Source: Ancylonema sp. (taxonomy: Eukaryota). From it: a DNA stretch of 64,000 nucleotides. The DNA is taken from NCBI GenBank assembly GCA_050230475.1, contig JBFLGF010000136.1:1-64000 (forward strand), given 5' to 3'. This document shows positions 387-52,676 of the stretch, in pieces. Numbering within the stretch: the stretch's first letter is position 1; each line of letters opens with the position of its first letter. A model generated the notes under the pieces. That model searched no databases. It was not told the DNA's origin and was given only the letters and a program-made list of their open reading frames with translations. The translations under genes were made by a program, and so were the position numbers.

Positions 387-2503
387 TCATCGATTTCGTT
401 CCGGAATTTTTGGAACACTTTCGTCTGTAGAAACGTGTTCGTAAGAAACGGAGCTGTACTTGTTAATAGCCTCCAAAATCTTCTCCTTATCACGAGTCGG
501 AAACTTGGCTACAAGAACACCATCTCTATAGAAATAGAACAAGGGCACCACCTGCAAAGAAGACATTTCAAGTTGAAAGGCAAGTGAACACCAAATTCAG
601 TCTAGTTCCAATGGTTTAGGATAGTGAAAATCCTCGATTGCCTTCATTCTTATTATCCAAACCAGAAACTCATGACTTCCCAAACAACCTTGCGATACCC
701 AAAATGTCCACACATACATCGCACCTCTCCGGTTGGGAGGCATACATAGCATAACACAACATTGCCCTTTTTATCCAATTGACATGATCTCTCCCTGTAG
801 AGCCAACGTTGTGAGTCAGAATTATCAACATACCTTGATTCGAAATTCTTCCGCGAGCTCAGATTCCTCGTCATATTCATCCAAGACCTGTTCAACGAGA
901 GCAAAGACTGTTCAAAACGGTTGTTTCGCCAAGAGAGAGTAGACCGGGTTTCAGAATATGAAGGATTAGTTCAACTGTGATCCATGATTATATCCAACCC
1001 CGATTATGCCAGCTCCGTCGATGCCCTAATTGATGACCTAGAAACATGATCGAGCATCAAAATTCACCATCTATCACATCATGCTTCAAAACTGACTCAA
1101 GGGGCGGAAAATGATTCATTCAAGATGAATTACATTGTTTTCATATTTATTTGAGTGACAGAGAGTAGGAGTTCCACGCATTTGGCTTAACAAGGTTCAA
1201 TCCTACAATAAAATTTTGACCAACCACTCCACAAGTGCTGGAACCCTCTCCTTGAATGCGTATGGCCCCAGCCTCCTAGTGTGAGATCATTGCACTTCAT
1301 GCAACCTTTAGACTCCTCTTTTGCGTAAAGGAGATGCCCTTATAATAAACATACCACCAATCCCGATACAACTCCATTGCACTACCTTTATTGATGCTAC
1401 ATGAGAAGAATAGCAAAGTGAGGTATAGCGTAAGCTGATCTACAAGAGATGTGGATGTGCTCCTTTTACACAAGAAAAGTAAGACAATCCACAATTTCTG
1501 GCACCACTCTCTACCAATATCCCCCCATATCCCATGCATAAATTGCATGGGACCATATATTGTTTTAACCATGACTGCAACGACATTGCCACCTCACAAG
1601 GTAGAGGCATACTTGCGTCTACCCTTTGCCCTGCTTTACGTCCTTGACCCTTTCAGTTACCTACTTAATTACCTACTTCACCCTTGCTCTTAAAAAATAA
1701 TGTTGTTCGTTTCAATGTAAAGACAAGACAGATCACACAAATTAAGATCCAACGAGAGAAGTACGATAAATTGTCCTTGTTAGACATGGCTTCATATTAT
1801 CTGTCATTAAGTTGAGATTTCCAGGTAATCTTTCCAATGGTTTTTGGCAGAAACTCCTTCAATCCAAACCTTTCACAAGAGCTGATATTAAACTCACGTT
1901 GTGTTTAAGAAAGATGACCGGATGTTGTTTCTCTGCCTCTCCTCGGCAAAGCTTCGCAAACCCGTGCTCTATGTACTTGCAACTGCCGCAGGCGGTTTTG
2001 TAGAAATCCACAACAACCACAGCATTTCGTCGCCGGGCTGCTTCAAGCGCCTGCTCGAGCTCCTGCTTGGTCAAAATTTCGCGCACGCAGCCAACGTGGC
2101 AAACATCCTCACTGTCGTCTTCAATATCGTCTGGGACAGATTTCTCTGCCTTACTCCTGTCAATTTTGATTGCAGGTGACGACACAGGCCTGCGACTGTT
2201 AGACGACTGACGCATGTCCCCCTGACGAGAAATCGGCAAGGTATTCCGATTTCTTGTATGGATCACCTTGGAATCCCGCAAAGTGCACGTACTAGTAACT
2301 TGTCGTCCAAGCAAGACTACCTTTATGCTTTGCCCCTGTCGGGAAGGACATCGAGAAGAACGCACTTTCGGAAGATTCCACCCTATTCTACCACAGGTCC
2401 GGGTACACGAGGAGACGTGTGGACGCAGTTGTTCATCTAGAATGTCAGATGTCTCGAACAGGCAAAAGGATCGGGACACAGCGAATGCTCCGGCACTCAT
2501 CAT
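387..2503 (-). CDS. Chloroplast thioredoxin-like protein (atypical CGSC active site, TRX-like 4/Lilium-type). Exons 2503-1898, 887-834, 551-387
   Basis: Exon 1 has a transit-peptide-like N-terminus and VVVDFYKTACGSCKYIE...FLKHN. Phase-0 GT-AG introns join VLDEYDEESELAEEFRIK and VVPLFYFYRDGVLVAKFPTRDKEKILEAINKY...RNR*, completing a thioredoxin fold. Confidence 0.9.
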
Positions 2504-2795
2504 CCCCGGCAATCTACCTCTGCCTCAAATTTGCCACCAATATCTTACCGCCAAACAATCTGCTGGTCATGCAACGAACGTTGAGGGGGGTGAACGCAAC
2601 GCAACACAACGTTCACTTGGTGAAGAGGCTTTCGCTGAAAGGCCTTGTGATGTAGAGCCCTCGGATAATATCACCTCGATATCGTAAATCGTCAATCTAG
2701 ATCGAGCATAGATGGGTCAGCACCCAGGCGCAAGATTTGCGCGCGGCCCGCGTGCCGCGCCGGGACAATTTCAGTAATCGACTGAAATTTGACCA

Positions 2796-4499: not shown

Positions 4500-4690
4500 G
4501 TCCAAACGGAACTCACCACGTTTGTGGGAAACGAGTTATGCACGGGGACGGCCAAAATGTATGCAAACGCCGAATTTCAAACGCGTACGTACGTACGACG
4601 AAAGTTGCAAACGGCGTTTGCAAAACGTTCGCAAAACGTTTGCATTTGCAAACGTTCGAATCTGCAAACGTTTTGCAAACTTTTGCAGCG
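4500..4690. repeat. GCAAACG/CGTTTGC subterminal repeat cluster of a truncated DNA transposon
   Basis: More than 10 CAAACG/CGTTTG-type motifs in both orientations, resembling the ends of the 6795-7417 MITE. Confidence 0.5.
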
Positions 4691-4804: not shown

Positions 4805-6150
4805 AAGTGTACTGTCCGATCCAAAAGCACTTTAGAGGTGGGAAGTTCAAAGCACTTGTATGGGAAGGAGTGTTGGTGGGCTATTCTGCAGAGAGTCCAG
4901 ACTATCGAGTATGGGACCAGGAGACCAGAAATGTTTTACAATATCGGGGGACCAGCTTTCAACGAGGAGGTAGAGCAAGAGTGGTGGAAGAAGGACTCGT
5001 CGATAAAACTAGTGATCCCCGATGAAGAAGGAGAGGAGGTGGAGTTCGACGATGACGCAATTGCTGAGGAAGTGCAGCCATCGACGCCTTCCATCGGATC
5101 ACGAGAGGGGAATCAGGACTTGTCGCCAACCCGGTCAGAAGGACAAGAAATTCCACGTAGAGGAGGAATAGGACCGTGGAAATACGTCAATGAGCCAAGA
5201 GTGAGAAACATCGGATGAGGGAGTCGGGGAGGAGAGAGCACAACTGCACCCCGGCGGAGTGAACGAGAAAATCTTGGGGTGCCACGTGAAAGACTTGGGA
5301 ACGCGATGATGCTGGCGATGATGTCTCCCAACCGAGACTCACCGGAGTCAATCCGAGAGGCACTAATGAGGAGCGACAGCCATACTTGGAAAGCAGCAAT
5401 CAACAGCGAACTTGAATCAATTGATGAAAATCGAGTTTTCACGATTGTAGACAGGCCCAAGAATGGAAAGAGTATAGTGGGGTCAAGGTGGGTGCTCAGA
5501 ATCAAGCGAGCGGTGGACAAGAAGGTGGACAAGTATAAAGCAAGACTAGTAGCAAAAGGCTTCACACAGAAGGAGGGGGTGAACTACACGGAGACCTTTG
5601 CACCAATCCTACGATTTGAGTCCCTCCGTGCTTTGATCGCCTATGCGGCGAGTGAGGGGTTGTACATGGAGCAAATGGATGTGTCGACAACATTTGTGTA
5701 TGCAGATATAGATGAGGCAAATCACATGGAGATCCGTGAGGGGATGGAGGGGTACGGAAGTAGAAAGGTCATGTTGCTCCACAAGAGCATCTACGGGCTG
5801 AAAGAGGCTTCGAGGCTGTGGAACGAGCACCTCGACAAGGTTTTTGGGGAGTTGGAATATCATCGACTCACCTCAGACTTCGGGGTGTACATTAAGGGAA
5901 AGGGGGAGAACAGAGTGTTAATGGGGGTGTACGTCGACGACATCACCATGTTGGCCAAGGTGATGCAGATAGAGAGTGGATTGAAAGGACATCGACAATT
6001 GGAGTTCAAAATGAAAGATCTGGGAGCTACAAACTTCATTATGGGCATGAAAATCCGACGGCATGAGAACGGTGATATCTTTTTAGTGCAAGAGAAGTAT
6101 GCAAGAGACATCTTGAGAAATGACAACATGTATGATAGCAAGGCACTAAG
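4805..6150 (+). pseudogene. Ty1/Copia pol fragment: integrase C-terminus and RT (first part)
   Basis: GVLVGYSAESPDYRVWD, WKAAINSELESI, YKARLVAKGFTQKEGVNYTETFAP, QMDVSTTF, SIYGLKEASRLW, VYVDDI, MKDLG. Ends at DSKALS. Confidence 0.92.
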
Positions 6151-6794
6151 TTGATGAATGTCCTTAGGTTCTGGCATGTCCCTAATGGCCGTAGTTTTTT
6201 CATCCTGAGGTGTGATACCTTCGGGGGTGAGTTTGTGTCCGAGAAAATCCATTTCCTTGGCAAATAACAAACATTTACCAGGGTGACACTTAAGTTTGTA
6301 CTGCCGAAGTCTGTTGAAGACTTGTTGGAGGTGCATGATGTGATCTTTGAATGTTTTTCTCCAATTGGTGATGTCGTCGATGTAACATCGTGCATTAGTA
6401 AGACCATTGAGGATAGCGTCCATAGTGCGCTAAAATAAAGGTGCTGCATTTTGTAGGCCATCGGGTACCACATTTCACTCCTAGAGTTTACGGTTAGCTC
6501 CCCAAAATGCGGTTTCTTATTGATCCTATTCCCTGATGGGGATCTGGTGATATCCTTGTCGCACGTCCATTTTGTTGAAGATCTTGGCGTCCTACATCTC
6601 AACAAAAATATCTTCGATTTTGGGTAAGGGATATCGATCCAATGTAGTGTGGTTGTTGATAAGCCGGTAGTCACCACATTGTCGAAAGTCTGTGTATTGT
6701 CCGTCTTCGTCCTTTTTGCGAACTACCACGAAGGCAGATGCATATTTGGTGTTGCCGGAGCTAGGCCGAATCATTCCAAGGTCATGAAGTTTTT

Positions 6795-7417
6795 CATAGT
6801 AGCATGCAAACGGGAAAAATCGGCCCATACGGCGTTTTCCATACGCGGACGTATGGCATACGCTCCATACGGCCAAAATTGTACTTGGAAAAAAAGTGCA
6901 CCCCTCAAAATTTCGGATTCGGGCCCGGCCAGGAAGTAATTTACGATGAGGAACTTTATCGAGTAAGAGTGAAGTAAGAGAGGATTTTTTGTAGGGAGAA
7001 AAAAATGATGATATTACTTAATATTGAAACATTTTTTCCCAATCAAATTCATTTTGTGGTTGAGAATTAGTTGATGGAAATCCATATGTTGAGTATGGAA
7101 CTTGGAAAAAAACATGTGGAGAAGAAGGGTGTAAAAGAAAAGAAAATAAAAAGCGGGAAATAATCTTAAAAAATATATACTTGCAAGGTAAAAGCTACGG
7201 AAATGGAAAATAAAAAAAATAAAAGAAGGGAAATTTCGAAAATGAAAGTTGTGTGGAAATAAATTGAAAAAAAAACAAAAAAAAAACAAGTGTACGGACG
7301 TATGGAAGTGTGCGGTTGGACCACAGTAGGGTGTTGCGTCCGTACGGCTAAAAGTGCCGTTTTGACGTTTGGGCGTTTTGCGTTTGCAAAACGCATACGC
7401 GTTTTGATGCTACTATG
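6795..7417. mobile_element. MITE with CATAG termini and 8-bp TSD (P-like or hAT) inserted in Gypsy RT
   Basis: TIRs CATAGTAGCATGCAAACG ... CGTTTTGATGCTACTATG. TSD AAGTTTTT at 6787-6794 and 7418-7425. Removing it restores ESNCEKLHDLGMIRP. Confidence 0.9.
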
Positions 7418-7984
7418 AAGTTTTTCGCAGTTGGATTCCAAAAAGTCCCATTATGTTTTACTGAGCTTGTGAGATCCTTGGAAAATAGATCTAGTGGTAT
7501 CGAGGGGTAACTCCATAGGTGTGTTGTTAGAAGTTACAAATTCATCAAGAATGAATGCGAAGCAATCTCGGTTGGATTCAAGCAATGCTAAAACTTTTGC
7601 CTTTTCTTTAGGGGTGAGATGGTCAACAATTTTCGATTCAAACTCTCTCTCCGTTGTGGTTAGTGGTAATTCTTCGGGAGGATAAAAAAGGTCATTCTCA
7701 ATCTCAGGTGAAGTACCTTCCGTAGCTGCAAGGAGTTGGGTTTCATAGGTGAAAAGAATGGCACCGTTCAAATATTTTTGTTGAGCAGGATCCACAATGA
7801 ATGTTGATTCATGGTTTTCGTAGAATTCTTGCTCCTTGGCGTCATAATACAGTGTATGATACTACTTGAGGGTATGATAGGTGCCCCCCCCCACCTCAAT
7901 GGTCTGAGAGGTTGGGTCTGTTTCCTAGCGAGGGTGCAATGAAATCGACAGAGGAAGGGTGTCAACATACGAGGGCAAATTGTG

Positions 7985-9000
7985 CGATGCCATAAGAATG
8001 CCGCCGAGCCATACTAACATGTTCTTGTCCATGGTGCGACCAATGAGTTGGCAGCGTGCACTGGTGGTGATGCCTGGTGCAGCTGTGTCTACATCCTCAA
8101 ATCCCATGAAGCAATCACGTTCCCATATATTGGGTGTCTCCCATTGTTCCGAATGCAGGTTGTATACCATACCCGGACCTGGTGATCCCTCCCGAAACCG
8201 GTATTGAAAGCTGCCAAGGTGAAAAACAATGGTAGGCATAGCTCTGCGTGGGTACCCAACCTTATCAACCAATGCACGGGGTGGTGTGTCATTGGTGGTG
8301 ACACTTGTGGGTCGATGGTTCAGGTCTATAATTTTGGCCAAGAGTTTCAATGGTGGAACCGCGGGAATTGCCAACTCCAAGATATGAGGTGGTATGAAAT
8401 TCGTTCAGAGACATCGTACTCGGTGAGCGTTAGTGCCAACACTGCATGCATCGACAACTGCCAAGTATCCGAGAAATGACTTGATGAGGACTATCGTGTC
8501 TTGAATTTCTTTTGGAAAGTCGTCGAAAGGGTAAGTGTTCTCTAAGACAAAGATGGGTGGGTTAGGCTGAATTCTGATCAGGTGGTTATTGCAACGGATC
8601 AGATCGAAGAAGTATGGGAATCGTTCGTCATTACATCCTTGTTGATTGCCTGCCTTGCTGACCATTTGGCACTCCCGCCCTGTAAAAATGAAATCGATCG
8701 GTCCTTTTTGTGCGATGAACCTGTCGAAATGAGCATTGGAAATCTGAGAAATGTCATGAGGAAATCTAGTGTCAAATCCTAGAATTGCACTGGACGGAAG
8801 TTGTCCAGGGTGTCGTGCTTGGATCTTGGGTAACAATGCGCGTGTCACTGCTCGAGCATCCATGTTGATGTCGTTGTTGATGTAGGTACCGCAATTATAG
8901 TCGGCGTTCATAATGATGGTCATACTTGCGCAACTAGTTCCCCCAAAAGGATCCCACACGTTAAGTCCTCGTTGCAAAGCTCCAGGGTTGAATCGGACAT
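7985..9000 (-). pseudogene. DNMT3/DRM-like C5 cytosine methyltransferase domain inside Gypsy pol
   Basis: Motif I NVWDPFGG; III PHDISQI; IV PIDFIFTGRECQMVSKAG (catalytic Cys kept); V DERFPYFFD; VI FVLENT; VIII AHRVRCL*TNF; IX ERDCFMGF; X RCQLIGRTMD. The two ORFs share a frame and are split by one TGA. Confidence 0.9.
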
Positions 9001-10043
9001 CGTACCGAGGGGTGATAGGAACCGCGTCTCGAATCGGTATTCTTTGCCATTCGGAGTGCTTTGGTGGAACGGGGTGTTTGCACACAATGTCTATGGCATT
9101 CTGAATCTTGATATTGCTTTCCAATCGACGTTTGTGAACTTTCGTGGTTGCATTTGGCTCATTTACTTGTGCCAGACTTTTGGTTACGGTGAAAAGCTTT
9201 AGCTTGTGTGTGGCTCTGATCTCAAAGTGTTTGCGAGTTGCGAGACAGTGAATGGTGTCAAATCCCATTTCTATGTCTTTGGGTCGTAAACCGGCAAAGT
9301 TGATGGATCAGGTGATGGTGTTTCGGAGGCAATACTATGCTCGTATCCTTCTTGTGCCACCATGACTTCGAAATGTGCAAGATTATCTTCATCCTCGTTG
9401 GTGGCGAACACGGTTTCGTCATCGTTCTTAATAAATGTGACCATGGTGGTGTATGTGGTGTCTGCTGAAACTCCCTGGTTCATGGCCACCCCAAAGGTAT
9501 CGAGTTCTGAGTTGCATTGAGCCCATGAGTGATGAAAGGAACGGACACCATTCTGTCACCTTTGATTTTAGTCTATTCGATAGTGGAATCTCTGTCCCCA
9601 ACTGTCGACAATCCCGCCGATGGGAACAATGAAAGAGTTGCCAAGAAGAATCGAGTACTTGTCTGAGGGTGACAAGATGAGGCGGACCGGAACAGTGGTT
9701 TTGAACTTGCCTTGTCCAATGGTGATCTTATAATCTCGTTTGGTTACACCCAATGATGTGTTGGCCTGGCCCGACGAGGTGATATATTCTTCGCCAGGAT
9801 CAAAATCTGCCTTAGTGATGCCGAGTTGTTTTGCTATGGTGACGCCGATCATGCAATCCCTGATCCAGTATCGAGCACCATATCTCCTGTTGGTTCGACT
9901 CCTTTGATGAAGAAGAGTTGTTTGTTTTTCTCAATCACAAGCACTTCCCAATTTGTGGTAACACGGGCGTCTGGCTCGACGAATGGTTTGCTGTTTTCAG
10001 GCCTGACTCTGGAGTGAATTGCCGCGCCTTGAGGGGGGGATAC

Positions 10044-10449
10044 TGTTAGGACCCTCGCTACAGTCACTAGGGCTCCCTAGCGAGGCTCCCACACTTAGCA
10101 CTAGAGCGCTACTAGCGCACTTTTCCCCATAGCGAGTTTTGTCCCTTTATAGTCATATGTGTGTCCTTAGCCCCTTTGTCCTTATATCGAGTGCCGACCC
10201 TTAGCTTTCCAGTTTGTTCTTATAGAGAGTTCTAGTTATCCCACTGGATGTCGACTTTCACTATAACTAGTCCATAAGAATGCCTTTGGAGATTCCTATT
10301 ATCAACTCATGTACTTGCACCTTGTGCCTACCATATCGACCCCGACCATTGATCATCGGCTCATTAGCCTCCATCCTATCGGCTCAATTCCGCCATTGCT
10401 TTGTTGCAACATAGATTGCTAGGAGTTCCATTCTATTCCACTCCTAACA
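10044..10449 (+). repeat. LTR preceded by a polypurine tract (family of 39454-39918 and 31202-31551)
   Basis: GAGGGGGGGATAC|TGTTAGGACCC ... CTCCTAACA (alternative end 10471). Reverse-complement homology to the solo LTR at 39454-39918. Confidence 0.8.
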
Positions 10450-11619
10450 CTCTACCTGTCCACTCCTAACAGGTACCGTGAGTTCCATTCTAGAATGCCA
10501 GCTTGTAGTTTTTGCCACTCTTCCTTGGTCATGTGATCTCGTGGGCAATCTTGCGAAATATGACCTGGTTGGAAGCAGTTGCTTCAAAATACGCACACGA
10601 TAATGGTCACGATAAATCAAGCGTTGCGGTGATAGAATGATTCACGAATTCAATAACGGGTGCAGACAATTCAAAGGGTGAATTGTCTGGCTGAGCTTGT
10701 AGCGAACTTGTAACGATTTCTGACGTCAGCAAAATGGCTAACAATCAAAGGCTTGCAAAGGTCACGATATTGTAAGAGTAACGATAATTTTGAATACGAC
10801 AGAATTTCACACAATGCGTATGCAAAACGGCACACGGCTTTACAGCTATTTGAGATGCGACAGCACGCACAAGCAAACAAGTAATTTTGCAAAAAATTAC
10901 GGCTGAATGAAGCGACGCGAAGCTTGCAAGAAATCACAAGGAATATCAAAGGCAAAACGGCACACTTGAGAGCGATAGTAAACGATTTCAAAATACCCGA
11001 ATTCACAGAGATTGCAACGATTGCAAAAGAGTTTGTTGAAATTCAGACAGCGTAAACTGACTCCGGAAGCTGGCAGTTAAAAAAGCGACTTTTTGCTTTA
11101 ATACAATCGACGCGGCTTTTCGCACGCGGAATATTCTAGATATTATCTTGATCTAAGACTGAAACCGAATATCGACTAGACAACTAATCTCGACTGTCTA
11201 TCTGGAGTTCTAGATTTTACAAGTGCGGCAGTTCACTAGCCAGGCTGGGTGACTGAAACTAACTCGGCGCACACTGGGAATCTTCTAACTCGTCGATACG
11301 AAAAAATACTCTGAATCGAAGTCTAAAAAGTGGTACACTAACTTTTCTAGACTTACTGAGTATTAAAAAAAAAACAAATCAAACGTCTGACTGATCGAAA
11401 CTCATATAACGACAGAGTTCGATATAACGATAAAAAACCGACAATTACCAAAATTGCTATTTTTAAAGCGGATCGACAATTAAAATGTCTTTTTTTTCCA
11501 ACGACCTCTAGCGGCATGACATAGGTAACTCCTCCCCCTCCAAATAATGGAACCCAAAGGGAAAAATATAATAAAGAAAGTAGTTCGGGAAGTACCCGGG
11601 CGCCCGTTGCTTCGCCTTG

Positions 11620-11870
11620 CCACGTATGGGAGGACTTCGTTCCATTCCTCCACATGGCCCTTAAGGGTCTTACGAAATGCTTTCTTCATTGTGTAGACCA
11701 TCCGTTCCGCGAGCCTATCAACCCGAGGGTACTCGAGAAGCCAGCCGATGGTCGATCTCGTGACGAGCTAGTTGGGTACGGAAGTGGCCCAGAAACTCCT
11801 TCCCACGGTCTATCGCCACCTCCGAATGTGGCTTGCAGCGGGAAAGCAACATATGCTGGTTAAGCGCAAT
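11620..11870 (-). pseudogene. Gypsy integrase core fragment
   Basis: LARHEIDHRLAS...LAERMVYTMKKAFRKTLKGHVEEWNEVLPYVA, similar to the integrase at 20476-20790. Confidence 0.75.
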
Positions 11871-13649
11871 CGATGTTGTCTTGAATGACTTGTTTAAGAT
11901 AAAGTTCAATGACGTGTGGTTTGACATAGGCTACTCAAAATGGCCATTAGTATAGCTCGGAGTGTCGGTCTCGAGATGATATGAAACTCGATAGCACATG
12001 TGCAGCTTCAGTGTCGACTATTGATCGTGGTGGGTTTAACTCATGTAATAAGAAGTCTCACCATGTAGGGTTGCGGATCGGGTCTATGCTGAGGTATCGA
12101 TATTCTCGCACTCTATCACAAATTTCATTCTTTCGGTGTTAATAACAATACTTGACGCCGAGGGCGAATATACAAAAAGAAAACAATCACTAAAATGTGG
12201 TGAAAATAATTGCAAGTAAAACAGAGTGACGCTAGTTGCATGCTACTAAGGTCGCCAGTCTTAAGTTAGATTTTCATTTGAAAGTAAGATTGTTTACGAG
12301 TAGTCGTTGAGAATGAATTGATGGGTTGTGAGAAAAAAAAAAAAAGTTGGCTCAGTGAAGAATGACAACAAAAATATTACGAATATAATTTTTTTATCGA
12401 CAAGTTAAGAACGATAGTTTTGACAACTTCCGAAATTCGCTAACGATGGTTGAGCAACAATTCAACATTCGTTAGTGCGCGAGTAAGGATAGCATCACCC
12501 AATCGTTGCGGAATTAACACAAATCGTACGGGCAAGATTCACAACAAGTTGGGAGTATTTGTGAGATTTTCTTCACGGCGCAATCTAACATCGGAAGGTG
12601 GAGATGTTATCAGTAAAAATGGCCCAGAACGATTTCGTTGAGCGATGCTAATCGAGAGGTTCGAACTAAATTTTTATCTTCGAACTAGAGTTGCATCGAC
12701 GGGATAGCTACCGACGGGCTCTATTCAATTTTGCTCTTTGTCTTTTATTCTTTCATGACAGGGATTTGTCCCTCGCTCTTCTGTCTCTTTACTGACAGGA
12801 ACTCAACTTTTGTCACTCTCTCGACAGGCATATTTATCGCGCTTCTGCCTCTCTTGGGGCAGGGACTTCCACAATATGATCCGGGCTATCGATGCACAGG
12901 ATACATAGGGAAATTACGTCAAGCATTCAACATGAGTGCNAGCGCTCCGAGAACATTACTTTGCAATGGGATCTTTCAAATACCAGATTTTGAATCGGTC
13001 TGTTTCTTGCGCATAGCAGCAGAGCCGCACAGCCGCGCAGCCGCGCAGTCGCATAGCCGCACACCAAAATGGGCAGCGGACAACCCAATAACAGTGGAAT
13101 ATCGTATGAAGGTACAAGTCTTTGTCGGAATAATAAATGCATCGATAGCTTTACCTCTTACTGGTGTTTTTCTAATTCCGGCGGAGATGGCGGAAGTCAC
13201 GATGATTGCAGCTTGTGCTTTCTACGAGGGACTAGCTGGAAAGCTGAAACTACGATAGAAGTCTATAGGCGCATTTCTTATGCAACATACAAATGAACAG
13301 CGCAGAGGCGTTTGGTGTATCATGGACTGCGAGCTTTAGTAATTTCCACTGGAATTACTATCCAGATATATGGAACTGTCGTAAGATTCTGACTTAGCTA
13401 CCTTGGAAGCTGGTGGCTGCTTGGGGAAGATCAGCACCGGTTAACCGCTCTAGGGGTTATGGACGAGGAGCCGCCTTCGAAGTCAGAGATGCATCGTACA
13501 GTTCCGTACACGCAAATTAGGCCTTCGGACCTAATTTGCCACCCCCCCGGCCAGTCGGTGACATGTGCTACGGGTTGCGCACCCCGCATCCCGCAGCCCA
13601 CTGGATTAAATCGAAGAAGGCCTTGTGCCGTGTCAAACCTCAGCCGTTG

Positions 13650-14711: not shown

Positions 14712-17700
14712 CAATAACTATTCCACAAGCAAACCTCCTGTCGTACGGAAAATCATTTTTGCGGTGTAGCCTGATTCTGAGTATCGAGTGCAATTGGCCG
14801 ACCGAACGCTAAAAGTTTATGGGCCCACAGGCGGTCTAGGATTTCGGACGCCGTGGTGTCAGACTCTTATAGGTTCCACGCGATTCACTGTGCCAAGTCA
14901 CGGAACATAACGGTAAATTGCGCCTATGTTGTTAGGGCAATTTGGCTGGGAAATTTGCTGCACGTAATTGCGGATTGCGTGTGAGGGTTGTTGTTAGGGT
15001 CCAGTTGACTCGCTGCGGCCGTCTGAGAATGTGTGTGTGTTTCAACTGGTTTTGCTACTTGTAGTGGTTTTTTGCGCTTGTATTGCTAACGTGCTCACAG
15101 AATGGGGGACAAGAGTAACATCCCGCAGTTCAGTGGGGCCGCATATAAGGCGTGGGCGTTCAATATGCGATTTTGACTCATCGAGAAGAAGCTCCACAAG
15201 GTGGTCTTTGGGTTCAAGAGGAAGGCGAGAGAACCTCGACCTGCGGTTATCGTGCCTCTAACACAAGCAGATCTGAACCTTCTTGCTGATAATGCTGCTA
15301 GGATTGCTGAAAATTCTGCTCGTCAAATTCTCATCGATGCCAGGCAACTAGACTGTGATGCATGGGATGAACTTGACTCAACGGCTCAAGCGTATCTTGT
15401 TAAGTACCTTGGGTCGACAAAACAAACACAAGTTAGGAGGTGTGAGTATGCGTATGAAATTCGGGAGGCACTTGAGTCTCATTATGTGCTGCAAGGTGAC
15501 ATTGAAATTGCCAATGCTACTGCGAGGCTTTCAGCCATCATAATGTATGAAGCTCAAGAGTTGCTAGTTTATGTCCTTCGCTTGGAGGCACTACATGAAG
15601 AGCTCGATGACCTGGGAAAGCCGCTGACGCCATCGGAGCTAGCTACGTCGTTGCTGAACTCGTTGAACACGCGCTACAATCTACTGGTGGGATCGGTCAT
15701 GCTTTGGGCGACAACCGCTCTCAGCCACTACACGATTCCGCGCATCGTCTCGGCGCTGCAGCGAAACAACGTGCGTGAAGAAATCAACGAGCGCAAGTGT
15801 GGACACCCGGCTGGTGGCGAGCACCATGCGAATTTTGGGGGAGCCGGCGCTGGCCAGATTGGCAGGCCGCATAATGGAGGGGCGAGGGACATGCGCAACA
15901 TCCAGTGCCATGGGTGTCGGCAGTACGGGCACTACAAAGCGGATTGTCAGAGTGAAGGGCCGCAGCAGCCGGACATGAGAGTATGCCATAATTGCCATCA
16001 GTTTGGCCACCTGAGCCGCATCTGGACGAGGCCCCGGGACAACGGGCAACAGATCGGAGGTCGTCAACAACAGTATAGGGGAGGAGAGCGAGATCAGCAA
16101 GAGCAGAGAGAGCTGCAGTGTTCTTATTGCAAAAATCCAGGACACCTCAAGGACCGGTGTAGGTTTCGCAAGCAGGATGAGGAGGGATCCGCCAGATTGG
16201 CGGCGTGCGCAAGGGCTGAGTTTGGCCAGAATGCACTCGAGTTTAGTGAGCAGAATGCGGGGATGCTAAATTATGGGATGGCGGTGTTCGCGAGTGACAT
16301 GCCAGTAGTGAATGCGACGCTGGAGGGGAAGTTTTTGATTTTGGATTCTGCGGCAACGGATCATATCTTCTCAAGCCGTGAAGACTTCGAGCGATAGTCC
16401 ACCGTGGTGCCAGCCGGCAAGACGCACGTGCGCACGGCTTACGGGAAGGCCCATCCAGTACTTGGGGTAGGAATGGTGAGGGTGTTGTTGAAGAAAGGGG
16501 AGTTGGTGGAGGAGGTGATGGTGAATGCCCGTCACGTGCCCAGCTTGGGTCAATAGTTGGTGAGCACGGACTGCCTCAACAAACGTGGGGGGGTGGGATT
16601 CCAGCTTAGACAGTCTACTGGCAGCAGTTCAGGAGAAATAATGCCAGTTACACCAGAATCAGCCGATTTGTAATTGGAAAAATGCGTTAGTTAGCCACAT
16701 CATTTATCTACAGTTACCACAAGAAGTATATTGATTTGAATGAGCGATCTGGGAGTATTTATATTTTTACTGGACAGGGGTATTTTGGGCAGAAAGTTTG
16801 CTGTCATAATGTTAGTTTTGGTAGGGTCCCAATAAACAGGAGGTGCGACTTGAGAGGAGTTTTCGGATCCACCTGCCTTGCTTGGCAGGGGGTGAATGTG
16901 AGTTGGAACCAGTATGGAGGACTTCAAGACTTTCAAAAGCTGAGTCCTTTCCAACTTTAACCTTTTACTTGTTGAAAATGTGAAATATGTGAAAAAGTTG
17001 ACGTTTCAAAAATGTAACTTTGGTATGTTATCTTTGTTTGAAATGAAAATTAGCATGTAGATTTGTATTGCTGTGTTGAGTGTTGTCACAAAATCTCACG
17101 TTGTTTAGACATGTTTTCAAAAAGATGTGAAAAGTTCAAGTTTTCTGACTACACGGATGAAAAAGTGAGTTAGTGAAAAAATGAAAAATGTTTTATTTTT
17201 GTCACTAACTTGTGGTCTTTTTCTGTACGTTCAGGGCTTCGGCCCGAAAAACGAGTATGGAGCGGGATCGTGTGAATTTCAAGCGAGGATGATTTATGAT
17301 TTAGATAGGAGCCCCTAGTTTGCCTTAATGACTAGGGAAGACCAAACTACCCGGATACAATTTAGGGTAGTCCTCTTTTACACTTAGACAATTCCAATCA
17401 AGGCAATTTATCCGAGAGGGTGTGTTAGGAATTGTTCGGATAGGCGCCTACTTGACTTGATTGCCTAGTCCGGAATAATTGCCTAAGTCTTTTGTTGCAC
17501 GGAGCCGGGTACACTACACCCGGGCATCTGTCCGCCTTTGCACGTGTCCATATTTGTACGGCGTGTCAATCTCTTGCAGTCGTAAGTTATCAGAAGTCTC
17601 GTATCGTAAGTCGTCAGAACGACTCTAGGGCGGTGTCATCAATCCATCGACTAGAATGATTGGTGTTAGTTTACTCCGGCAAGTTGCCGTAGATCTTTGA

Positions 17701-18961: not shown

Positions 18962-19229
18962 TAAGCTTTTGAGTGATATGACGTGCAATAGACTGGTGGA
19001 CGACAGATGAACCGTACGCAAAAGGATCTCTNATGCTTCACTCCGTCCCAATGCACTTTCCTTGGATTCTAACTGAAACTCCCCAAGCACCTCACGGCCT
19101 CCGCCATGTCCGGTCGCGTTCCTTGCGAGATATAGATGAGGCTTCCGATGGCTGCACGGTAGAGGACGTCTGCCATTTCTAGTTGCTCCTCCACCGTCGT
19201 TGGACGGTCCCCTTTTCCAAAACTACTTC
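18962..19229 (-). pseudogene. Copia RT continuation (19229-19033), N gap, and LTR end (18962-19031)
   Basis: GSSFGKGDRPTTVEEQLEMADVLYRAAIGSLIYISQGTRPDM. TAAGCTTTTGAGTGA..GAACCGTACGCAAAAGGATCTCT matches the LTR end at 47193-47266. Confidence 0.8.
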
Positions 19230-21330
19230 CTCTTTTCTTATTATTGCAAGTTTGTCCCTCAGTTTTCTTGCATTGCAGCACCCCTCAACGCCCTGCTCAA
19301 AGGCGATGTGACCTGGCATTGGTCCGAGACACAACAAAAGAGCTTCGACAAACTCAAGCAACACATTTATTCCGAACCAGTCCTTCGACGCCCCGACATG
19401 AATAAGGATCTTCTCATGGCCATTGACTGGAGTCAACACGGATTGGGAGCGGTCATCAGTTAGCTTGACGACGAAGGTAATGAGTATGCGGTCGCTTTCG
19501 CATCCAGAAGTTGCACTCCTGCAGAGAAAAACTACAGCGATTTTCATGGCGGATGTTTGGCAGTGATCTGGGAGTCCAACATTTTTGAAAATTCCTTTTT
19601 GGTCGTCCACTCACCCTTATCACTGACCACGCACCCTTAAAGTGGATCATGACAACTACCAAGCTGACGGGCAAGTTAGCTCGCTAGGCATTGTTGTTAC
19701 AAAAGTATGAGTTTGACGTGGTACACAGGGCGGGCATCCTCAACACTAATGCAGACGGCTGCTGTCGATGCCCATTACTAGAATCAACATCTCTTGAACA
19801 CAAAAATGACACATAGGGAGAAAAAACACCATGCGACCTCTTTCAACCACCGCCAATCGGGGCAATCTCATCCAGTTATTTCATTACCTATCACCAAGAC
19901 TCCGCACCCCAAGTGGAACCAACCTTCGACATTTGGGACGACAAACTAGTCATGCACCTTCTCAAGACCCATGCGCATGTTCCTAACCTAAGTGCCATCA
20001 AACGAGACAGAGTTTACCGCCGCGGACTGAAGTACAAATGGTTAGGTGGAAATTTGTACAAGAAATCTTCCTCGGGAAAATTGTTGCTCGTTCTTTCACC
20101 TCCTGAGCGCATGCCTCTCATCGACACCCTTCACACACGATACGGACACTTTGGAGTCAAACGTATCCTCCATGCTTTGCAAAAAAACTATTGGTGGCAT
20201 TGTATGTGTGACATGGTTATCCAGTTCATCCGTAATTGCAAAGCTTGCTCTCGTTCGAAAACTCATTTACGACAGGGCCGCAGACAACTTCAACCCTTGC
20301 CTATCCGAGGATTGTTTTACCGATGGGGCATTGATTACCGTGGTATTTTCCCATCAACCGCCAAAGGCAACAAGTACATTGTTGTGGTAGTGGACCATTT
20401 TAGCAAGTGGGCTAAATTCATGGCGGTACCTGATAAGAGCGCCAAATCCACTTCTGGTGCAGTTCTGACCACATCTTGGCACGTTTTGGAGCACCTGGAG
20501 AGTTCATTACAAACCAAGGCTCCGAATTCGAAGGCGCATTCAACACCCTTCTCAATCAACATTATATCACCCATCGCACTACCGGCAGAGAACATCCACA
20601 ATTTGATGGGCTGACCGAACGTTTGGTACAAACCCTCAAGTCTGCCCTGCGCAAAACCCTTCTTAACAGGCATCGACAGGATTGGGATCTGTACTTACCT
20701 TATACCGCGATGGGATACCGAATGACCAAACAAGCATCGACAGGGTACACCCCTTACCACCTGACCTATGGTCGTCACCCTTTGTTTTAGGCCAACATCC
20801 ACGACGCCGAACATTACTTCTTACACCTTGATAATAACCTCCCCAAGTTCCTTGAAGAACGAGGTAATTTGTACCGGGAAGTTATGCCGCTGGCCATGCG
20901 CAACCTTTCCATTGCCTAACCACGCGATCGACACCACTACTTCAAGATTCATGACCGCTATGATCGACCCAAGGCAAATTACCACCCTGGTGAATTTGTC
21001 TATGTCAAAAGGAAAACCAAAGGGTTCTTGGATATCGCAACCCATTCACAAATTCTGGAAATCACAAAAATCAGGCCTTCTGGGAACATTCAACTCCAAG
21101 GCCGAGACGGTCGCCGAATCTGGGAACAAATGACAAATATTTCCCCACCATCAGAGACAAAAACATTGATGTCAATCGGTTCAACACCTCTGACCCAACC
21201 TTTTGCAGAGAATGTGGGGACCGTAAGGACGGGAAAAAACACGGTCCTGTGTCACAATTGCAACCATGGATACCACATCTACTGCTTGTCACCACCCCTT
21301 ACTGCCATCCCGGAGGGGGAGTGGTTTTAA
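19230..21330 (+). pseudogene. Gypsy pol second half: RT thumb - RNase H - integrase - PHD finger
   Basis: LFSYYCKFVPQFSCIAAPLN; DWSQHGLGAVI; TDHAPLKW; HTRYGHFG..CKAC (H2C2); WGID..VVVDHFSKW; C-terminal CREC..LCHNCNHGYHIYCLSPPLTAIPEGEWF. Stops and frameshifts present. Confidence 0.92.
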
Positions 21331-25636: not shown

Positions 25637-27295
25637 CACAGCAGACGAGCCTTACATCGATGCCCGTTTACCCTATCGATACCATCTGGCACGTTAGCTC
25701 TCACGACGGATGAGATCGTTAGCATATTACCCCTAATATGTAATAAATATCTCCCTCATAATAAACACTTTCCGCGCCGCGCCCAAGTGTGAGTTCCGCC
25801 TCGCTACAACTTCCGCCCCGCTCGTCGATTTCCCGAGCTCCAAGTTGCTAGCCGGCGCCCCACACCATATTTGATTAGACCTTAATTTGACGTGTCACTT
25901 TGTAACTAGTCAGCAATCAACTTGTGATGACTTGTAATAATTATTGGCCGTCGATGAATATCCGACCCTTCAGATTGTATATAAGACATTTGTGCGCGCG
26001 ACGAATATTGAGTTTGATTTGTAGAATGACACGCGTCTAGCGTCGTCTCTTGAGATTTGATAAAACCTTTGTAATCGCACTCACAATTTAGTTTTCGCTG
26101 GATTTAACGCTAAAGATACTTGCACACCATCCTTGCCTCTCGTGTAACATGTATGTCGTGGAAAATTTTCTTTGCCTTGCATCCTGTGTGTTTTGTATTG
26201 CTTGCTATCGTTACTTGCACATCCGAGCTGTCGCTCATCGTGCACAGTATTGTTTACCCGTTGTCGCGCCTTACCATTTTTGCACACTTTTACACGAAGC
26301 AAGTCAGAGCTTTGCTTAGTGTGCAGACTCAACTCCTTTGTTGTAGATTACAAGCAACTCAGACTTACACATAAGTAACTGATTGCCGACCGATAGCTTG
26401 TCATAGTGAATGACATCGTGTGCTTATAACGGGTGTGTAACACCGTTATCAAGGAGTAGGAGCCTTTATGACGTGAATAATTAAGTTGCCGTTATAGCGG
26501 GACAAATGTTCTGCGAGCTTCTGTTAAAGTACGGAGATCACAAAGTCGCCGTCAGCCGCCTTTGTGAGGGTTGGATGTAATTGGTTCCCTAGGATTTCAT
26601 ATCTTGTCATAAGTCCTTAGCCGATAGCCACCAAGTTTAGCCAACAGAGTGCCGCTGTCACGCGTACGACCGCTGTTGTAAACTTTCGGGCCAACGCCGC
26701 TCTTCGAGCCCGTTGGTGCCCTCCTACTTGATGTCTAAGCTAGACACATTGTGTTCATTTTTCGGAAACTCTTCCCGGAACACTTTGTTAACTCGCACGT
26801 GTATTTTACTCATATCATTACTTTTTGCAGTGTAACGTGATTACTTGCTATTAGCTAGAAAACGAATTAGCCTTAGTGTGCGCCAGCTTCGCTGCGCATA
26901 TCGGCAACCATTGCATTTCCTTGCTTTGGATAGTAGCTTCCGAAAAGTGCCTATCTTCGGATCACAGCATCCTGCATATATTAGTAACATGAATGTCCTG
27001 GTCCCGGAATCATACCGGTAGATTGGCCAGAGGTTCGCCTCAAAGCACAAATTGGGGATTTCATTCACCAAATTTGGAGCAATCAGAAATTGATTTCGCT
27101 GACTATTAGCTAGATTTCAGCGCGCTCTACGAGGGCCTCACACGTGCAAATCAGATTCCGCGCGTTTTCCCTGAACTCGCAAAAGCCAACTCTACCGCAG
27201 AACTTCCCTTTCCTTCGGGTGAACAATTTGTACCCATTGCTGCCATCCCTGTTGGCGCTGTTTATCAATCAGACGATAGTGATAACGAGGCTGGC

Positions 27296-27950
27296 ATGGC
27301 GGACGCCCGTCCACCCAAGTATAACGGGGAGCTTGGCAAGCAACAAGATGCGTTCTTCGACCATTCGCGTACACATTTCCGTCGCATGTGTTTGCGAAAG
27401 GACCGGGTCCTACATTCTTTTGAAGGTTACGGACAATTGGAGTTTCTGGATATTGATCTGCGCGACTGTCTTGGCCCGGACGCGTTAGAAGTTGTGACTA
27501 CCTTTCTTCACGACGCTGTTCTCATTCCTCCAGCAGCCGGCCCTGAACGAGTCGCCGCACAAGCATTGGCAGCCGCGCGTACGGTCTGGCGAGATTTCCG
27601 GGCAAATTGGTTAGAAGCAGCCCGTGGAGCTAAGCCCACTGTTCCCGTCGCATCAGAGCCAGCGGACATGGAGGATTTCTTTGCTGTGCTTTCATGGCTA
27701 ATTGCGGGCAAGCGTATCGCGACTTGATGAACTACAGCCTCATGTCCGGAGACACAGTGCACAGCCAGTTTGTACGACTAGAGGCCCTTGCCAAACCTAC
27801 GGAAGACGGAAGCATGACGCAGCCAAGAGACAACGCGATTCGCTACTACTACTTCCTCCCTGAACCAGCCAAGTCAGTAATGAGACCAGATTACGAGAAG
27901 GAACAACATAAATCCCCTCGTCCTCAGTGTCATGCCTTAGGTTTACGACG
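27296..27950 (+). pseudogene. Putative Gypsy gag
   Basis: MADARPPKYNGE...YGQLEFLD; the KY(N/S)G..YGQLEFL pattern is shared with 35153-35566. Follows a presumed LTR/leader at 25637-27290. Confidence 0.5.
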
Positions 27951-27954
27951 TGAG

Positions 27955-29300
27955 TGTTGATGGTAAGTGCCCCCCTTTTAAGTATAAACTGTACAACAGG
28001 ATCGGGCTACAAATAACTTTCCGGCACTATGCGTATTATCACGATGTTCAATATACGGAGGGAATGATTTGTGGAACAATAATGAAACAGTGTCATCATC
28101 GGGATAGGTATACCCGACGATTGTACAACGGAAGGATCTGATCGGACACTTTTTCTACTAGCCGACGGTCGGAACTATTGCCGCTCACAACTTGACTACA
28201 CTCCGACACATTTTGACATAGAGAATCTAAGTCACCATGAGCAACAATGAGTCACACGCCGGACACCGCCGGTCGTGTGTATAGACAAAGGCGGTGGATG
28301 CCGGGGCAGAGTTGTACCCGACCCCACAAACTAGATACAAGGACAGAGCGCTTATCATGCATACAAGCACAACTAAGCTAACCGGACTGGGCACAATAAG
28401 TAAGGTTGCTTATCCGAAATACAATTTCTTGCACACCCCCTCGGATGGCAACGCCTTCATTGGTCTACTAGTTGTGCAACCGAGGACTACGCTTTTTAGT
28501 GCTCAAAGATCGAATCTTATAGCATGTCTTCCCTAAGTCAAAAGATAGACTAAGGGGCTCCTATCTACTAGAAAATCGGAACTCTCCGAACGAGTGTAGA
28601 GCTCCCGACGCTAACTTCTCGATCTTTGGCCTCCTTCACATACAAAAACATAACACTTTGTAAGTACAAATAGAAAAATTGCAAACTTTTTATTTTTTGA
28701 AACCAGGAAAATTTTGCAACTTGTAACTCACAAACTACTCATCCAAACAACTTCAAATTTTCGCACAAGTCTTAAAGATTTGATAAAAGAAAAACACATC
28801 AATTTTCACAACAATCTAACAAACCATGCAAAACTGAATCTGTAACTTTTTCACATGTGTCCTCAAGTGTAGAGTTGGAGTCAGCTTAAAGATGTCAGCT
28901 TGTTGGACTTCTGGATGCCCCCCCAAGCTGTCTTCAACTATCCACACCAATCTGGTGCACAATAGAACTAACCCCTTGCACAACAAAACTCACCCCCGGC
29001 AGGTGGATCCGAAATCCACACGTATCACCTCCTGTTTATTGACAAAAACGAACTGTTTGGCAGCAAATTGTCTGCCCAGAATAGTCGTGTCCACTAAAAG
29101 TGACATAACTGACCAAACACTTAGCCAAACAGTCTCATGTAATGCGCTGCACTCAGCCAAGTGTACCAGATATATATAGCCCCAGTTGTACAAGTTATCA
29201 AGCACACAAACATTCAGTTCTGCTGGGCTGCTGTCAGCAGACTCTCCATACTTCTATTGAATACCGTGCGGGACATTATACAACCAGCTCACTTATCCAA
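27955..29300 (-). mobile_element. Copia-family 3' LTR (~27955-28432) and 3' non-coding region
   Basis: CTTGCA|CACCCCCTCGGAT junction as at 41573 and 17411-17423. 28990-29100 is the reverse-complement homolog of 16770-16895. Confidence 0.65.
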
Positions 29301-30017
29301 ATCACCTCAAACTACATAAAATTTTAGTCAACCCTACCAAGCACTTGTCTAGCTTTACAGCTCAAAAAAATACCAAATACTCAGCCCAATGTAAAATATT
29401 TTGTGGAGTACTAGCATAAGACTGTGCAAACCTCTAAAATCCTGTGCAGACCTCTGCAGCTTTTTACCTTCACTCTATCTTCCACATACATATCTTGGGC
29501 AGGCAGGCCCCCTACCAAAAGAAAAATAACTTAAACCATTCACACACCCCCAAGCACCAGCTAGCACACCCCTCGACCACTACACCAGACCGCGCACATA
29601 GCAGCCATTAGGTCAGGTGGGGCGTAGGGTTGGGAAGTTAGTAGGTGTGGATTGTTTGCTATGACTCTTGTCCTGATCCTAGACCTATGCTCCCTCACTA
29701 ACACCTGCCCTTGGCACCCCCATACACCTTGCTATCACCTAGCAACTCTTCTAGGATCTCATATCATGTCTTCCTCCCTAATCACCCCCACGTTAACTTC
29801 AGGTTCATGGACTTAGGGGTTGGAAGAATGAATGGGGGACATATCTTGCCGCGCTCGTGTGGTGACAGTCGAGTCCGGCATGTTGCCGTAGACACACGTG
29901 CGGTGGCACGACGACGGTCAATAGTTCCGACCGTCGGNAAGCAAGGTACCTGAGGGAGAAAAAGATGAGACAGTTGTCCAACTGCGAGACAAACTGAGCT
30001 CAAGTAGTACAGAACGG

Positions 30018-31200
30018 TTGGGACCTTGGGCCTCGGAGCAGTTTGTATATATGCCAAGGAAGGAAACAACATTGGTAGCACCACGATTCAGTTGGGATGA
30101 GGCAGATGAGGATGCTATGTTCGTAGCAGACATCCAGACTCCTAGACCAGATTGGTACCAACAGTTTGTCCAGGCTCTAGGGTCCAGCCTGTCATACTTG
30201 AGTAGCGCTCTAGCTCAGAACCTGTTGGTGGACCCCAGCTTTACAGTCCCAGTTCCCCCTTCTTTGCACGACATCGTCATGTGGAAGCACACTACCATTC
30301 CCAATGCAGCTGGCGTCTTCACCATTGAAGGAAATGCGCCACAAGGGGAGTGCGTCTTGGACTCAGGTGCGAACTTTTTCATGATCGGTAAGACGGTGGC
30401 AGATACATTGGGATTGCAAGCCAAGGATTTGGATGAAGGAATAACGTACATGGTCGCCTCAGGTGCTTCGGCGAAGTGCAAAGGGGTAACAATGAAGAAG
30501 TTTTCTATTGGCCTCCTCCCAGGCACCCCAAATCAGGTCACAACACACTTGCATGTAGTGGTAGACAACGCTACCTCGTATGATGTATTAATAGGTGCTC
30601 ATTTTGTCAATCGGGTGACCGTGCTCATCAACTACCGAGATTCTTATTGGGAGGTATAACCACTCTGAGAAACCACAGGGAAGCGCAGGGTGCGCATACC
30701 TATTGACCTCTATGTGACTCCAGCCTAGCTGAGAGAGAAGAAGAATGCACGATTGCAAGGCTATGTGGGAGGACCATCCGACTTCTTCCCCAACGCAACC
30801 CGTGGGCAAGTGGAAGCGTTGCAGCGCCTGGCAGACTAATGGCACGCACGAGAGGACGAGGAGGAACGCACCCGCGAGGAGGAGTGGGCTCGCACTGTCC
30901 ATGATATCCTTACCACCTGGCTGCTTGCATCTCGTGCTTTGCATATACCCACTATGCAGTTAGCAGAGTTGAAAGAACATTTTGAGCTCATCCGAATGCA
31001 TGTGGTCAATTTGCGCAATTGGACAATGCAAAACTGTATGGGAAGCCGGGAGGGTCCAGAGTCTTTCATCTGGACTCACAGACAGCGTGTCTTGCGTACA
31101 ACCCTCCATTTCTATGAGCAGTTGCAGAGAGACATCGCCATAAAGGAAGCTGAAGCTGAGGATGAACGCCAAGCTTGGGGCATCATCCCTCTTGCCACAC
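30018..31200 (+). pseudogene. Gypsy-type protease followed by an unknown linker ORF
   Basis: ECVLDSGANFFMIGKTVADTLGL...YDVLIGAHF aligns by eye with the protease of the DNMT-Gypsy (9568-9900). Confidence 0.7.
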
Positions 31201-31551: not shown

Positions 31552-31552
31552 T

Positions 31553-39453: not shown

Positions 39454-39918
39454 TGTTAGGGGCGGATGCAAAGGCGTCTTGAGTAAGCAAGTTGCAAAAT
39501 GCACACAAGCAACAAGATGGCGAAAGGCCGGATAGGACAAGATGGCGTGGGCCGGATGGAATGGTTGTGTTGTAATAATGACAACTCAAGATGGGTGCAA
39601 TTACATGAGTTGATAGGAATGTTCTAGAGGCATTCCTATCGGCTAGATATAGGAAAGTCGGCCCTAGCCGACTCTAGGAACAATGTGGGATATCTAACTC
39701 AAAGTCGGCTAAGTACACAACAGAATCAGGCTAAAGGCACAATTTCCATGGCTAAGGACACAACAGAATCTTCCCCAGGGCCAGGTGGCCGCTAGGGACA
39801 CAAGTCTCACTATGAAGGGGGAAAACTCGCTATAGGGAAATATGCTCTAGTAGCGATCTAGCGCTAAGTGTGGGGACCCCGCTAGGGATCCCTAGTGACT
39901 GTAACGAGGGTCCTAACA
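39454..39918 (-). repeat. Solo LTR with 5-bp TSD
   Basis: TGTTAGG...CCTAACA flanked by ATTAG at 39449-39453 and 39919-39923. Confidence 0.92.
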
Positions 39919-49090: not shown

Positions 49091-49144
49091 TCTCTCAGAA
49101 ATGAACAATGACAAAGTGTTGAGTTGGAAGAATAATCTTGAATC

Positions 49145-52125: not shown

Positions 52126-52676
52126 CTTGCTTTATAATTATGCTCAGCCCGATGATTTACGCAAACTTCTGAGCATATTTTGGGAAAATTAGCGACAAGA
52201 TATGCGTAAATCAACCGGCAGAATGTCCTGAGCATAATTATTCTGATATGCGCAGGCCGTAACGTTCGCCATTTTGGATGATTTGAGCATATTAATGGCA
52301 GAAGTCGAAAATCAGGATGATATGCGAGGCCGTAGCGGATGCTCTAACAAGTGTCAGCTCGGAATGCGTGGCTCATGAGCGAATAATCTTGCGCTCGCCG
52401 ATTCTTGCGGCTGAAATTGCGACACTCCGAGATTTACCGGTACAAGCATTGTCCGAAACGCGACTTGTGGGTTGCGTTATAACGACTCTGGTCGGGCTTC
52501 GTTGCACCGACCAGGGTACGTCGGTTGCCGTCTCAAAATGCTATCACGTGGGTCTGCATGCCCCGGTACGGTTACCCCAGCAGTCCACGCAGCAGACGCT
52601 ACCGTAGTAGCGTCTGGCTGGTAAAAGGCGCAGCGGCCTCGCTGCGGCCATTATTACTGTACTTGAACTGTCCACC

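Follow-up and report, generated by a model that had tools for sequence, protein, structure and literature searches.

A dead Ty3/Gypsy retrotransposon of Ancylonema sp. whose protease and reverse transcriptase flank a DNMT3-type cytosine methyltransferase, and its relatives in green algae

The closest described counterpart of the locus treated here is KnitGypsy-Dnmt3, or Gypsy-DNMT3, of Klebsormidium nitens, reported by de Mendoza et al. 2018 (PMC5890265) and named again in bioRxiv 10.64898/2026.05.21.726589. SymbioDIRS-Dnmt3, SymbioLINE-Dnmt and the EpiLTRs resemble it in being retrotransposons that carry a C5 DNA methyltransferase (DNMT) (PMC5890265; bioRxiv 10.64898/2026.05.21.726589). In yeast, de novo methylation at CG was found for the SymbioDIRS enzymes (PMC5890265), and the EpiLTR DNMTs are sister to DNMT4 and accompanied by DAM and a chromodomain (bioRxiv 10.64898/2026.05.21.726589). 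Here we analyse a stretch of 64,000 nucleotides of Ancylonema sp. DNA (contig JBFLGF010000136.1; the window in what follows), which holds on its minus strand, at about 10580-6140, a zinc knuckle, a protease, a linker, a C5-methyltransferase, a spacer and a reverse transcriptase (RT), in this order. The Symbiodinium elements are of other classes (DIRS, LINE), unlike the Gypsy element of the window. With KnitGypsy-Dnmt3, on the other hand, the window element shares an intronless, unrearranged DNMT3-type domain within Gypsy coding region, and the partial K. nitens protein GAQ93235.1, presumably one of the elements of PMC5890265, has the same order of zinc knuckle, protease and DNMT. An earlier note on this DNA, made from the letters alone, had suggested that the full architecture might be new; the Gag-protease-DNMT order of GAQ93235.1 contradicts this, and by its sequence the window element belongs to the published Gypsy-DNMT3 kind, with an architecture that is not new. 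The two are distant, since the DNMTs of GAQ93235.1 and the window have 28% identity over 328 columns, and motif IV reads Glu-Cys in the window and Pro-Cys in K. nitens. According to the authors, DNMT and RT lie in one open reading frame (ORF) in K. nitens (peer-review file of PMC5890265), whereas in the window a stop shared with a sister copy likely separates them. The repeats of KnitGypsy-Dnmt3 have a DIRS-like arrangement, A-coding-B-A-B (PMC5890265).

We consider it likely, taking the reading as a whole, that the window holds a dead and truncated Ty3/Gypsy element with a DNMT3-type enzyme between protease and RT, whose active copies would package the enzyme and methylate the new cDNA or insertion. 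Within this reading the identity of the family is held with strong confidence, and methylation in cis is given roughly even chances. The parts of the element are listed below; proteins related to it are cited by their numbers (P0001 and so on).

10542..10580, minus strand: Gag CCHC zinc-knuckle remnant NCFQPGHISQDCP; weak alignment (E 0.008-0.5) to knuckles that Pfam assigns to zf-CCHC in P0085, P0094 and P0222
9571..9960, minus strand: aspartic protease with a frameshift after DTG (9872-9864); blastp matches P0028 (E 1e-10) and P0026, also P0088
9014..9570, minus strand: linker between protease and DNMT with stops and frameshifts; tblastn with P0028 residues 243-858 covers 9154-7418
7988..8974, minus strand: DNMT3-type C5 cytosine methyltransferase domain, motifs I-X, with one premature stop at 8407
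7925..7927, minus strand: in-frame stop 37 residues past the motif-X glycine, which likely marks the genuine end of ORF1
7426..7924, minus strand: spacer and pre-RT region, containing the glycine run typical of the family; further stops at 7864 and 7453
6142..6794, minus strand: Ty3/Gypsy RT with six stops, ending at about 6140 (RVT_1, 82.1 bits)

The RVT_1 match bears out the Gypsy identity proposed in the earlier note. The RT carries YIDD at 6384-6373 and is 54-60% identical to its nearest RTs, and the nearest RT in the PDB to that of the relative P0029 is the Ty3 RT. The window protease has no Pfam match of its own and was assigned because it resembles the proteases of P0028, P0026 and P0088, which Pfam does recognise. 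Once a 623-bp insert is discounted, taken as 631 bp, DNMT, spacer and RT fall in one frame, and the element is colinear with residues 243-1085 of P0028. Judged by its RT, the upstream protease and the order protease-RT-RNase H-integrase in relatives, it is a Ty3/Gypsy long terminal repeat (LTR) retrotransposon.

The methyltransferase motifs follow one another in canonical order in a single minus-strand frame, free of introns, and all those named by the earlier note are present between protease and RT:

8953-8939, minus strand: motif I, DPFGG
8878-8864, minus strand: motif II, acidic residue
8680-8666, minus strand: motif IV, GRECQ
8545-8534, minus strand: motif VI, LENT
8428-8414, minus strand: motif VIII, AHRVR
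8122-8099, minus strand: motif IX
8056-8036, minus strand: motif X, RCQLIGR

The search with PF00145, proposed in that note as a check, gave 29.4 bits, the curated cut-off being 22, and a profile built from 128 family domains, the window's included, covers 8974-7988. A single-sequence search of the PDB with the window DNMT returned weak HhaI matches only. A nine-row profile ranked DNMT3A/B/C at 52-67 bits, DRM at 40-48, HhaI at 34-40, DNMT2 at 28-34 and DNMT1 at 13 among the best 60 of 67 matches, and it matched DRM2 in its C-terminal part only. The structure predicted from a 70-row alignment (pLDDT 94.2, pTM 0.91) found only DNMT3s among the 31 Foldseek matches listed, except the last, HhaI; VIA-align superposed it on DNMT3A with Z 26.9 and rmsd 2.8 over 273 residues, as compared with Z 23.1 for HhaI and 21.6 for DNMT1. 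In the Atlas, the relative P0008 falls with PF00145 clusters at 0.95, the family being present in 18-46% of cluster members. The window domain is thus DNMT3-type as judged by profile, predicted fold and unrearranged motif order. The first reading, DNMT3/DRM-like, stands in its DNMT3 half; DRM is rejected, as the motifs run from I to X and not with VI-X before I-V, and the DRM bits lie below those of DNMT3. Host DNMT3s (human DNMT3A/B, mouse DNMT3C, moss PpDNMT3b) are the best profile and fold matches, and the window domain can be aligned with them at the Gly-Arg of motif X and in the stretch that follows motif VIII. By structure they are 17-19% identical to it. The window domain is about 60 residues longer, is without PWWP, ADD or DUF3444, and sits inside a retroelement. 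DUF3444, the mark of host DNMT3 in non-flowering plants (PMC6453930), was found in none of the scanned proteins.

The DNMT is supported by sequence comparison as a family-level feature, co-inherited with the RT, because open relatives carry it within one polyprotein and the DNMT tree matches the RT tree; the domain thus lies at the same position in open copies, as would be expected of the family feature that the earlier note had proposed. A query with the RT gave 33 matches among 187 candidates, five of which carry PF00145 in the same open protein, and two more have DNMT pieces upstream of the RT. P0026 and P0028 read protease-DNMT-RT-RNase H-integrase-PHD finger, and open relatives exist in which Gag precedes this order. 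Word-index searches with the window DNMT were insensitive, with one hit in 1379 candidates of near length and none in 2114 longer ones, and it was the RT query and HMMER that found the polyproteins. Scans of viral and metagenome contigs found no locus of the element. The HMMER family profile matched 811 representative proteins at E <=0.001, 420 at 1e-10 and 50 at 1e-30, a breadth that was not found in the papers searched. Layouts were classed with home-made profiles for the best 150 of the 811: 13 had the DNMT after the protease or before the RT (type A), 68 had it after RNase H or before the integrase (type B) and 69 showed a DNMT only. Three of the latter, read by eye, are protease-DNMT or Gag-protease-DNMT ORFs without RT. 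Type B (RT-RNase H-DNMT-integrase-PHD finger, for instance KAF8056149.1 of Scenedesmus sp. PABB004) has the same DNMT family and the same PHD-tipped integrase as the type-A relatives of the window, and differs from the window in having the DNMT between RNase H and integrase. P0180 and P0243 (Scenedesmus sp. PABB004) and 67 more among P0081-P0230 are type-B Gypsy polyproteins. No description of this layout was found in our literature search, although the domain orders in the remainder of PMC5890265 may cover it, and the accessible part of PMC6317226 mentions neither methyltransferase nor PHD.

In the DNMT tree of 128 rows (29 of 157, shorter than 230 aa, were dropped) a single change (support 98) divides the 18 type-A from the 65 type-B rows, and the window groups with P0008 (99) and with P0026/P0028/P0029 (98). 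For 42 rows with both domains the type A/B split recurs in the RT tree (80) and in the DNMT tree (99), and the three nearest open relatives of the window are identical in both, with support 99 each. The RT and DNMT identities correlate over these 42 rows (rho 0.55), which, as kin share similarity, speaks for co-inheritance only. The trees are quick, unrooted and built without host DNMTs, so that they do not separate one capture from two, and in an earlier RT tree the window branch was flagged as long. Of ten relatives whose names were looked up, four had one. Those of type A are K. nitens GAQ93235.1 and two Closterium proteins, all on the same side of the DNMT tree as the window, the Klebsormidium comparison that the earlier note had called for thus coming out in favour of kinship. 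The named type-B relative, Scenedesmus sp. PABB004, is a chlorophyte, and in a further look-up of ten, one was a Coleochaete scutata protein with RT, RNase H, integrase and PHD finger but no DNMT in the ORF; all the relatives that have a name belong to green algae, and the host is presumably a green alga or plant. No description of Closterium and Scenedesmus members of Gypsy-DNMT3 was found in the literature search; further species may stand in the supplements of PMC5890265. A protein of the same lineage with RT, RNase H, integrase and PHD finger, P0065 (CAA9586175.1), is filed under an uncultured cyanobacterium and likely represents eukaryotic DNA in a metagenome bin.

Over protease, DNMT and RT the contigs of sample X1 sum to depths of about 280-970, whereas the flank 11578-12200 has 21-28; such summed depth is no copy number. 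The DNMT is covered by contigs of diverged copies, one of which, with 79 other letters, runs from its end into the spacer (7748-8282).

All 131 rows with a residue at the catalytic position have Cys there, and motif VI Glu (145/146), the motif VIII arginines (147/149 and 149/150), motif I Gly (102/102) and the motif II acidic residue (114/115) are conserved to a similar degree at about 30% overall identity. For purifying selection on the DNMT this conservation speaks only indirectly. The residue before the Cys is Glu in 78 of the 131 rows and Pro in 39. The EC in place of PC seen in the first reading is present, and, on these alignments, Glu-Cys is the commonest state of motif IV in the family. 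Its interpretation as decay was rejected, being contradicted by the Glu-Cys sites of these 78 rows. Motif IV of the window also has Arg where 106 of 131 rows carry Trp. A Glu-Cys active site in a Gypsy-borne DNMT3 was not found described in our literature search; the motif alignment of PMC5890265, outside its accessible part, may cover it.

The earlier note had placed the DNMT inside a continuous pol. In the window's sub-branch, the relatives' protein sequences suggest that it probably ends a Gag-protease ORF at a stop, in a two-ORF form, because the stop at 7927 is common to P0121, the ends of the P0001 cluster are shared and RT proteins start before the RT. P0121 (83% identical) terminates at the exact residue before that stop; in the P0001 cluster a common end point is found in, or terminates, all ten members, nine of which have it as their last residue; and many of the nearest RT proteins start just before the RT. 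P0081 (80% identical) is open across the site of the 8407 stop. Proteins ending <=45 residues past motif X make up 13 of 33 on the type-A side and 6 of 102 elsewhere, these being kin sequences, some maybe cut by contig ends. In P0026, P0028 and P0029, the nearest long relatives, DNMT and RT are fused and continuous. No split ORF after a Gypsy-borne DNMT was found described in the literature search, and the domain orders of PMC5890265, a source seen in part, may include one.

The window copy is dead, as the earlier note had it, because of stops, frameshifts, a 623-bp insert resembling a miniature inverted-repeat transposable element (MITE), an LTR-like insert and a lost 3' end. Protease and linker are frameshifted, the RT has its six stops and the spacer stretch three (7927 included), and the DNMT frame 9307-7928 has the single premature stop at 8407. 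The difference between one stop in 460 DNMT codons (32 surviving one-step codons) and six in 215 RT codons (17) gives a Fisher p=0.015, post hoc, and we favour no explanation for it. The copy has lost RNase H, integrase, PHD finger and the 3' end, and a Copia RVT_2 on the plus strand (5219-6154) adjoins the cut-off at about 6140. Both inserts, this truncation on the Copia side and the shared stop at 7927 go beyond the earlier note. The inserts and the upstream stretch are:

10700..11563, minus strand: non-coding, high-copy stretch with uncertain limits, likely LTR or leader, with a purine tract near 11540 at its start
10022..10492, plus strand: foreign, very-high-copy insert between zinc knuckle and protease, a purine tract followed by an LTR-like segment TGTTAGG...CCTAACA (10044-10471)
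6795..7417, no strand: MITE-like insertion of 623 bp between spacer and RT; its ends are inverted repeats CATAGTAGCAT, and 8 bp of target are duplicated AAAAACTT

The last of these, which we take to be hAT-like going by the 8-bp rule, is skipped by contigs of other copies (joints 6794-7493 and 6792-7431). The insert at 10022..10492 matches window 39791-39918 at 85%, and contigs from other copies lead from 10020 to 10493 with 26-28 letters in between, hence without the LTR-like insert. The stretch at 10700..11563 is presumably part of the DNMT-bearing Gypsy element; in sample X1 the summed contig depth is about 7,300-10,900 over 10722-11577 and 21-28 over 11578-12200. No tRNA-type primer site was found, and no repeat in the 64-kb window pairs as LTRs, the 3' end of the element being lost. 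At 11564-12032 (minus strand) an integrase fragment of a relative, of low contig depth, runs straight into the purine tract and high-copy stretch, tandem, nested and split-repeat arrangements being candidates.

In active copies, the DNMT would be packaged with the particle of the element and freed by the element's own protease. A Gag-protease ORF ending after the DNMT would bring the enzyme to near-Gag levels, and RT, RNase H, integrase and PHD finger would need readthrough, splicing or re-initiation. By analogy with the DNMT3 of animals and moss and with the DIRS enzymes of Symbiodinium, it may methylate cytosines de novo in the fresh cDNA or insertion, CG being the probable context, so that the new copy would arrive pre-marked; the PHD finger of relatives might steer integration by reading the chromatin state at the target. 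It is tempting, if tentative, to go further and propose that one capture of a DNMT3 before the chlorophyte-streptophyte split founded a large Gypsy lineage with methyl writer and PHD reader, in which the enzyme moved within the coding region (before the RT in the streptophyte-type, between RNase H and integrase in the chlorophyte-type), the site turned to Glu-Cys and, here, a position at the end of the Gag ORF would load the enzyme in bulk into particles to methylate the cDNA.

Several observations weigh against the proposal that active copies package the enzyme and methylate their own DNA. The CpG observed/expected ratio is 0.82 in the DNMT, 0.87 in the window and 0.42-0.79 in three Copia stretches, and 0.82 against 0.87 means that the window copy bears no footprint of self-methylation. 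In yeast, no methylation was obtained with the K. nitens enzyme, a result that its authors call inconclusive (PMC5890265). The Glu-Cys sites lack the Pro of the Pro-Cys motif, and the window DNMT differs at 7 of 34 highly conserved positions, one difference being the stop. In 26 of the 33 RT matches no DNMT appears, their ORFs starting at or just before the RT, so that loss and a split ORF are indistinguishable. Moreover, the X1 and X2 runs are one sample, perhaps the source of the window DNA, and give no independent support; run X3, with a small share of the sequence, was left out of the evidence. No RNA run was listed for this DNA, which carries no information on expression.

The exchange of Pro for Glu, the silent yeast assay and the absence of CpG depletion would also suit a conserved domain that transfers few or no methyl groups and whose main role is to bind DNA or RNA, or to decoy methylation factors of the host. 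DNMT3L-type dead enzymes lose catalytic and motif I, II, VI and VIII residues, and in the present family the Cys, motif VI Glu, motif VIII arginines, motif I Gly and motif II acidic residue are nearly invariant; we regard this alternative as unlikely. Less probable still is an enzyme that works in trans on the chromatin of the host, or curbs the activity of the element itself, the DNMT being selected in this genome after death of the RT in non-autonomous or host-used copies. The post hoc excess of RT stops and Gag-protease-DNMT ORFs that end without RT (P0108, P0218) point that way; against it, the window DNMT has its own stop and changed conserved positions, the upstream linker and protease are frameshifted, and the contigs at the RT stops 6528 and 6475 all read otherwise, other copies thus being intact there. 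That a processed host DNMT3/DRM copy inserted once into an ordinary Gypsy element is very improbable. The intronless domain and the lack of host DNMT3s in the trees leave some room for it, but open polyproteins share the domain order, RT and DNMT trees are congruent, contigs of diverged copies cover the domain, DUF3444 is absent from the scanned proteins and the motif order is unrearranged. A one-off retrocopy is largely refuted by the open relatives with the same order.

Elsewhere in the window, 19188-21324 (plus strand) holds a frameshifted RNase H-integrase-PHD finger piece from a separate copy in opposite orientation, which matches P0026 and P0028 at 41-47% and belongs to the same Gypsy lineage, and 27110-30659 (plus strand) holds a possible Gag ORF, with no Pfam match, and a family-related protease (Pfam Asp_protease_2), with no DNMT remnant after it. 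A second DNMT remnant and tRNA genes were sought in the window and none was found. A short palindromic stretch at 4616-4687 resembles the ends of the 7417-6795 insert and is possibly another MITE. Copia remnants lie at 5219-6154 (plus), 15177-16397 (plus), 31552-34284 (minus), 42224-46766 (minus) and 49143-52132 (minus), with duplicated blocks of 96% (31552-33348 with 50325-52132) and 98% identity (42737-43928 with 49143-50325). An Atlas query with a host oxygenase gave bacterial clusters. Host genes, apparently plant-like and intron-poor in style, are:

1862-2524, minus strand: thioredoxin, CGSC site
52680-53950, plus strand: 2OG-Fe(II) oxygenase, short introns
58657-59280, plus strand: USP
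59805-60662, minus strand: formyltransferase
61771-63633, plus strand: RFC1-like, BRCT and AAA domains, very long exon

The window element is a fossil of a published kind, and the wider family is the more surprising part. In the papers searched, Gypsy-DNMT3 was found only for Klebsormidium or 'streptophytes', as against the 811 representatives of the profile search. Those with a name include proteins of Closterium and of a chlorophyte; there are two layouts, and in many relatives the frame is open and the catalytic residues are intact. These relatives are natural enzymes for the question raised in 2018 as to the activity, sequence context and DNA target of Gypsy-borne DNMT3s, and a working Glu-Cys site, if true, would bear on how strict the requirement for Pro-Cys is.

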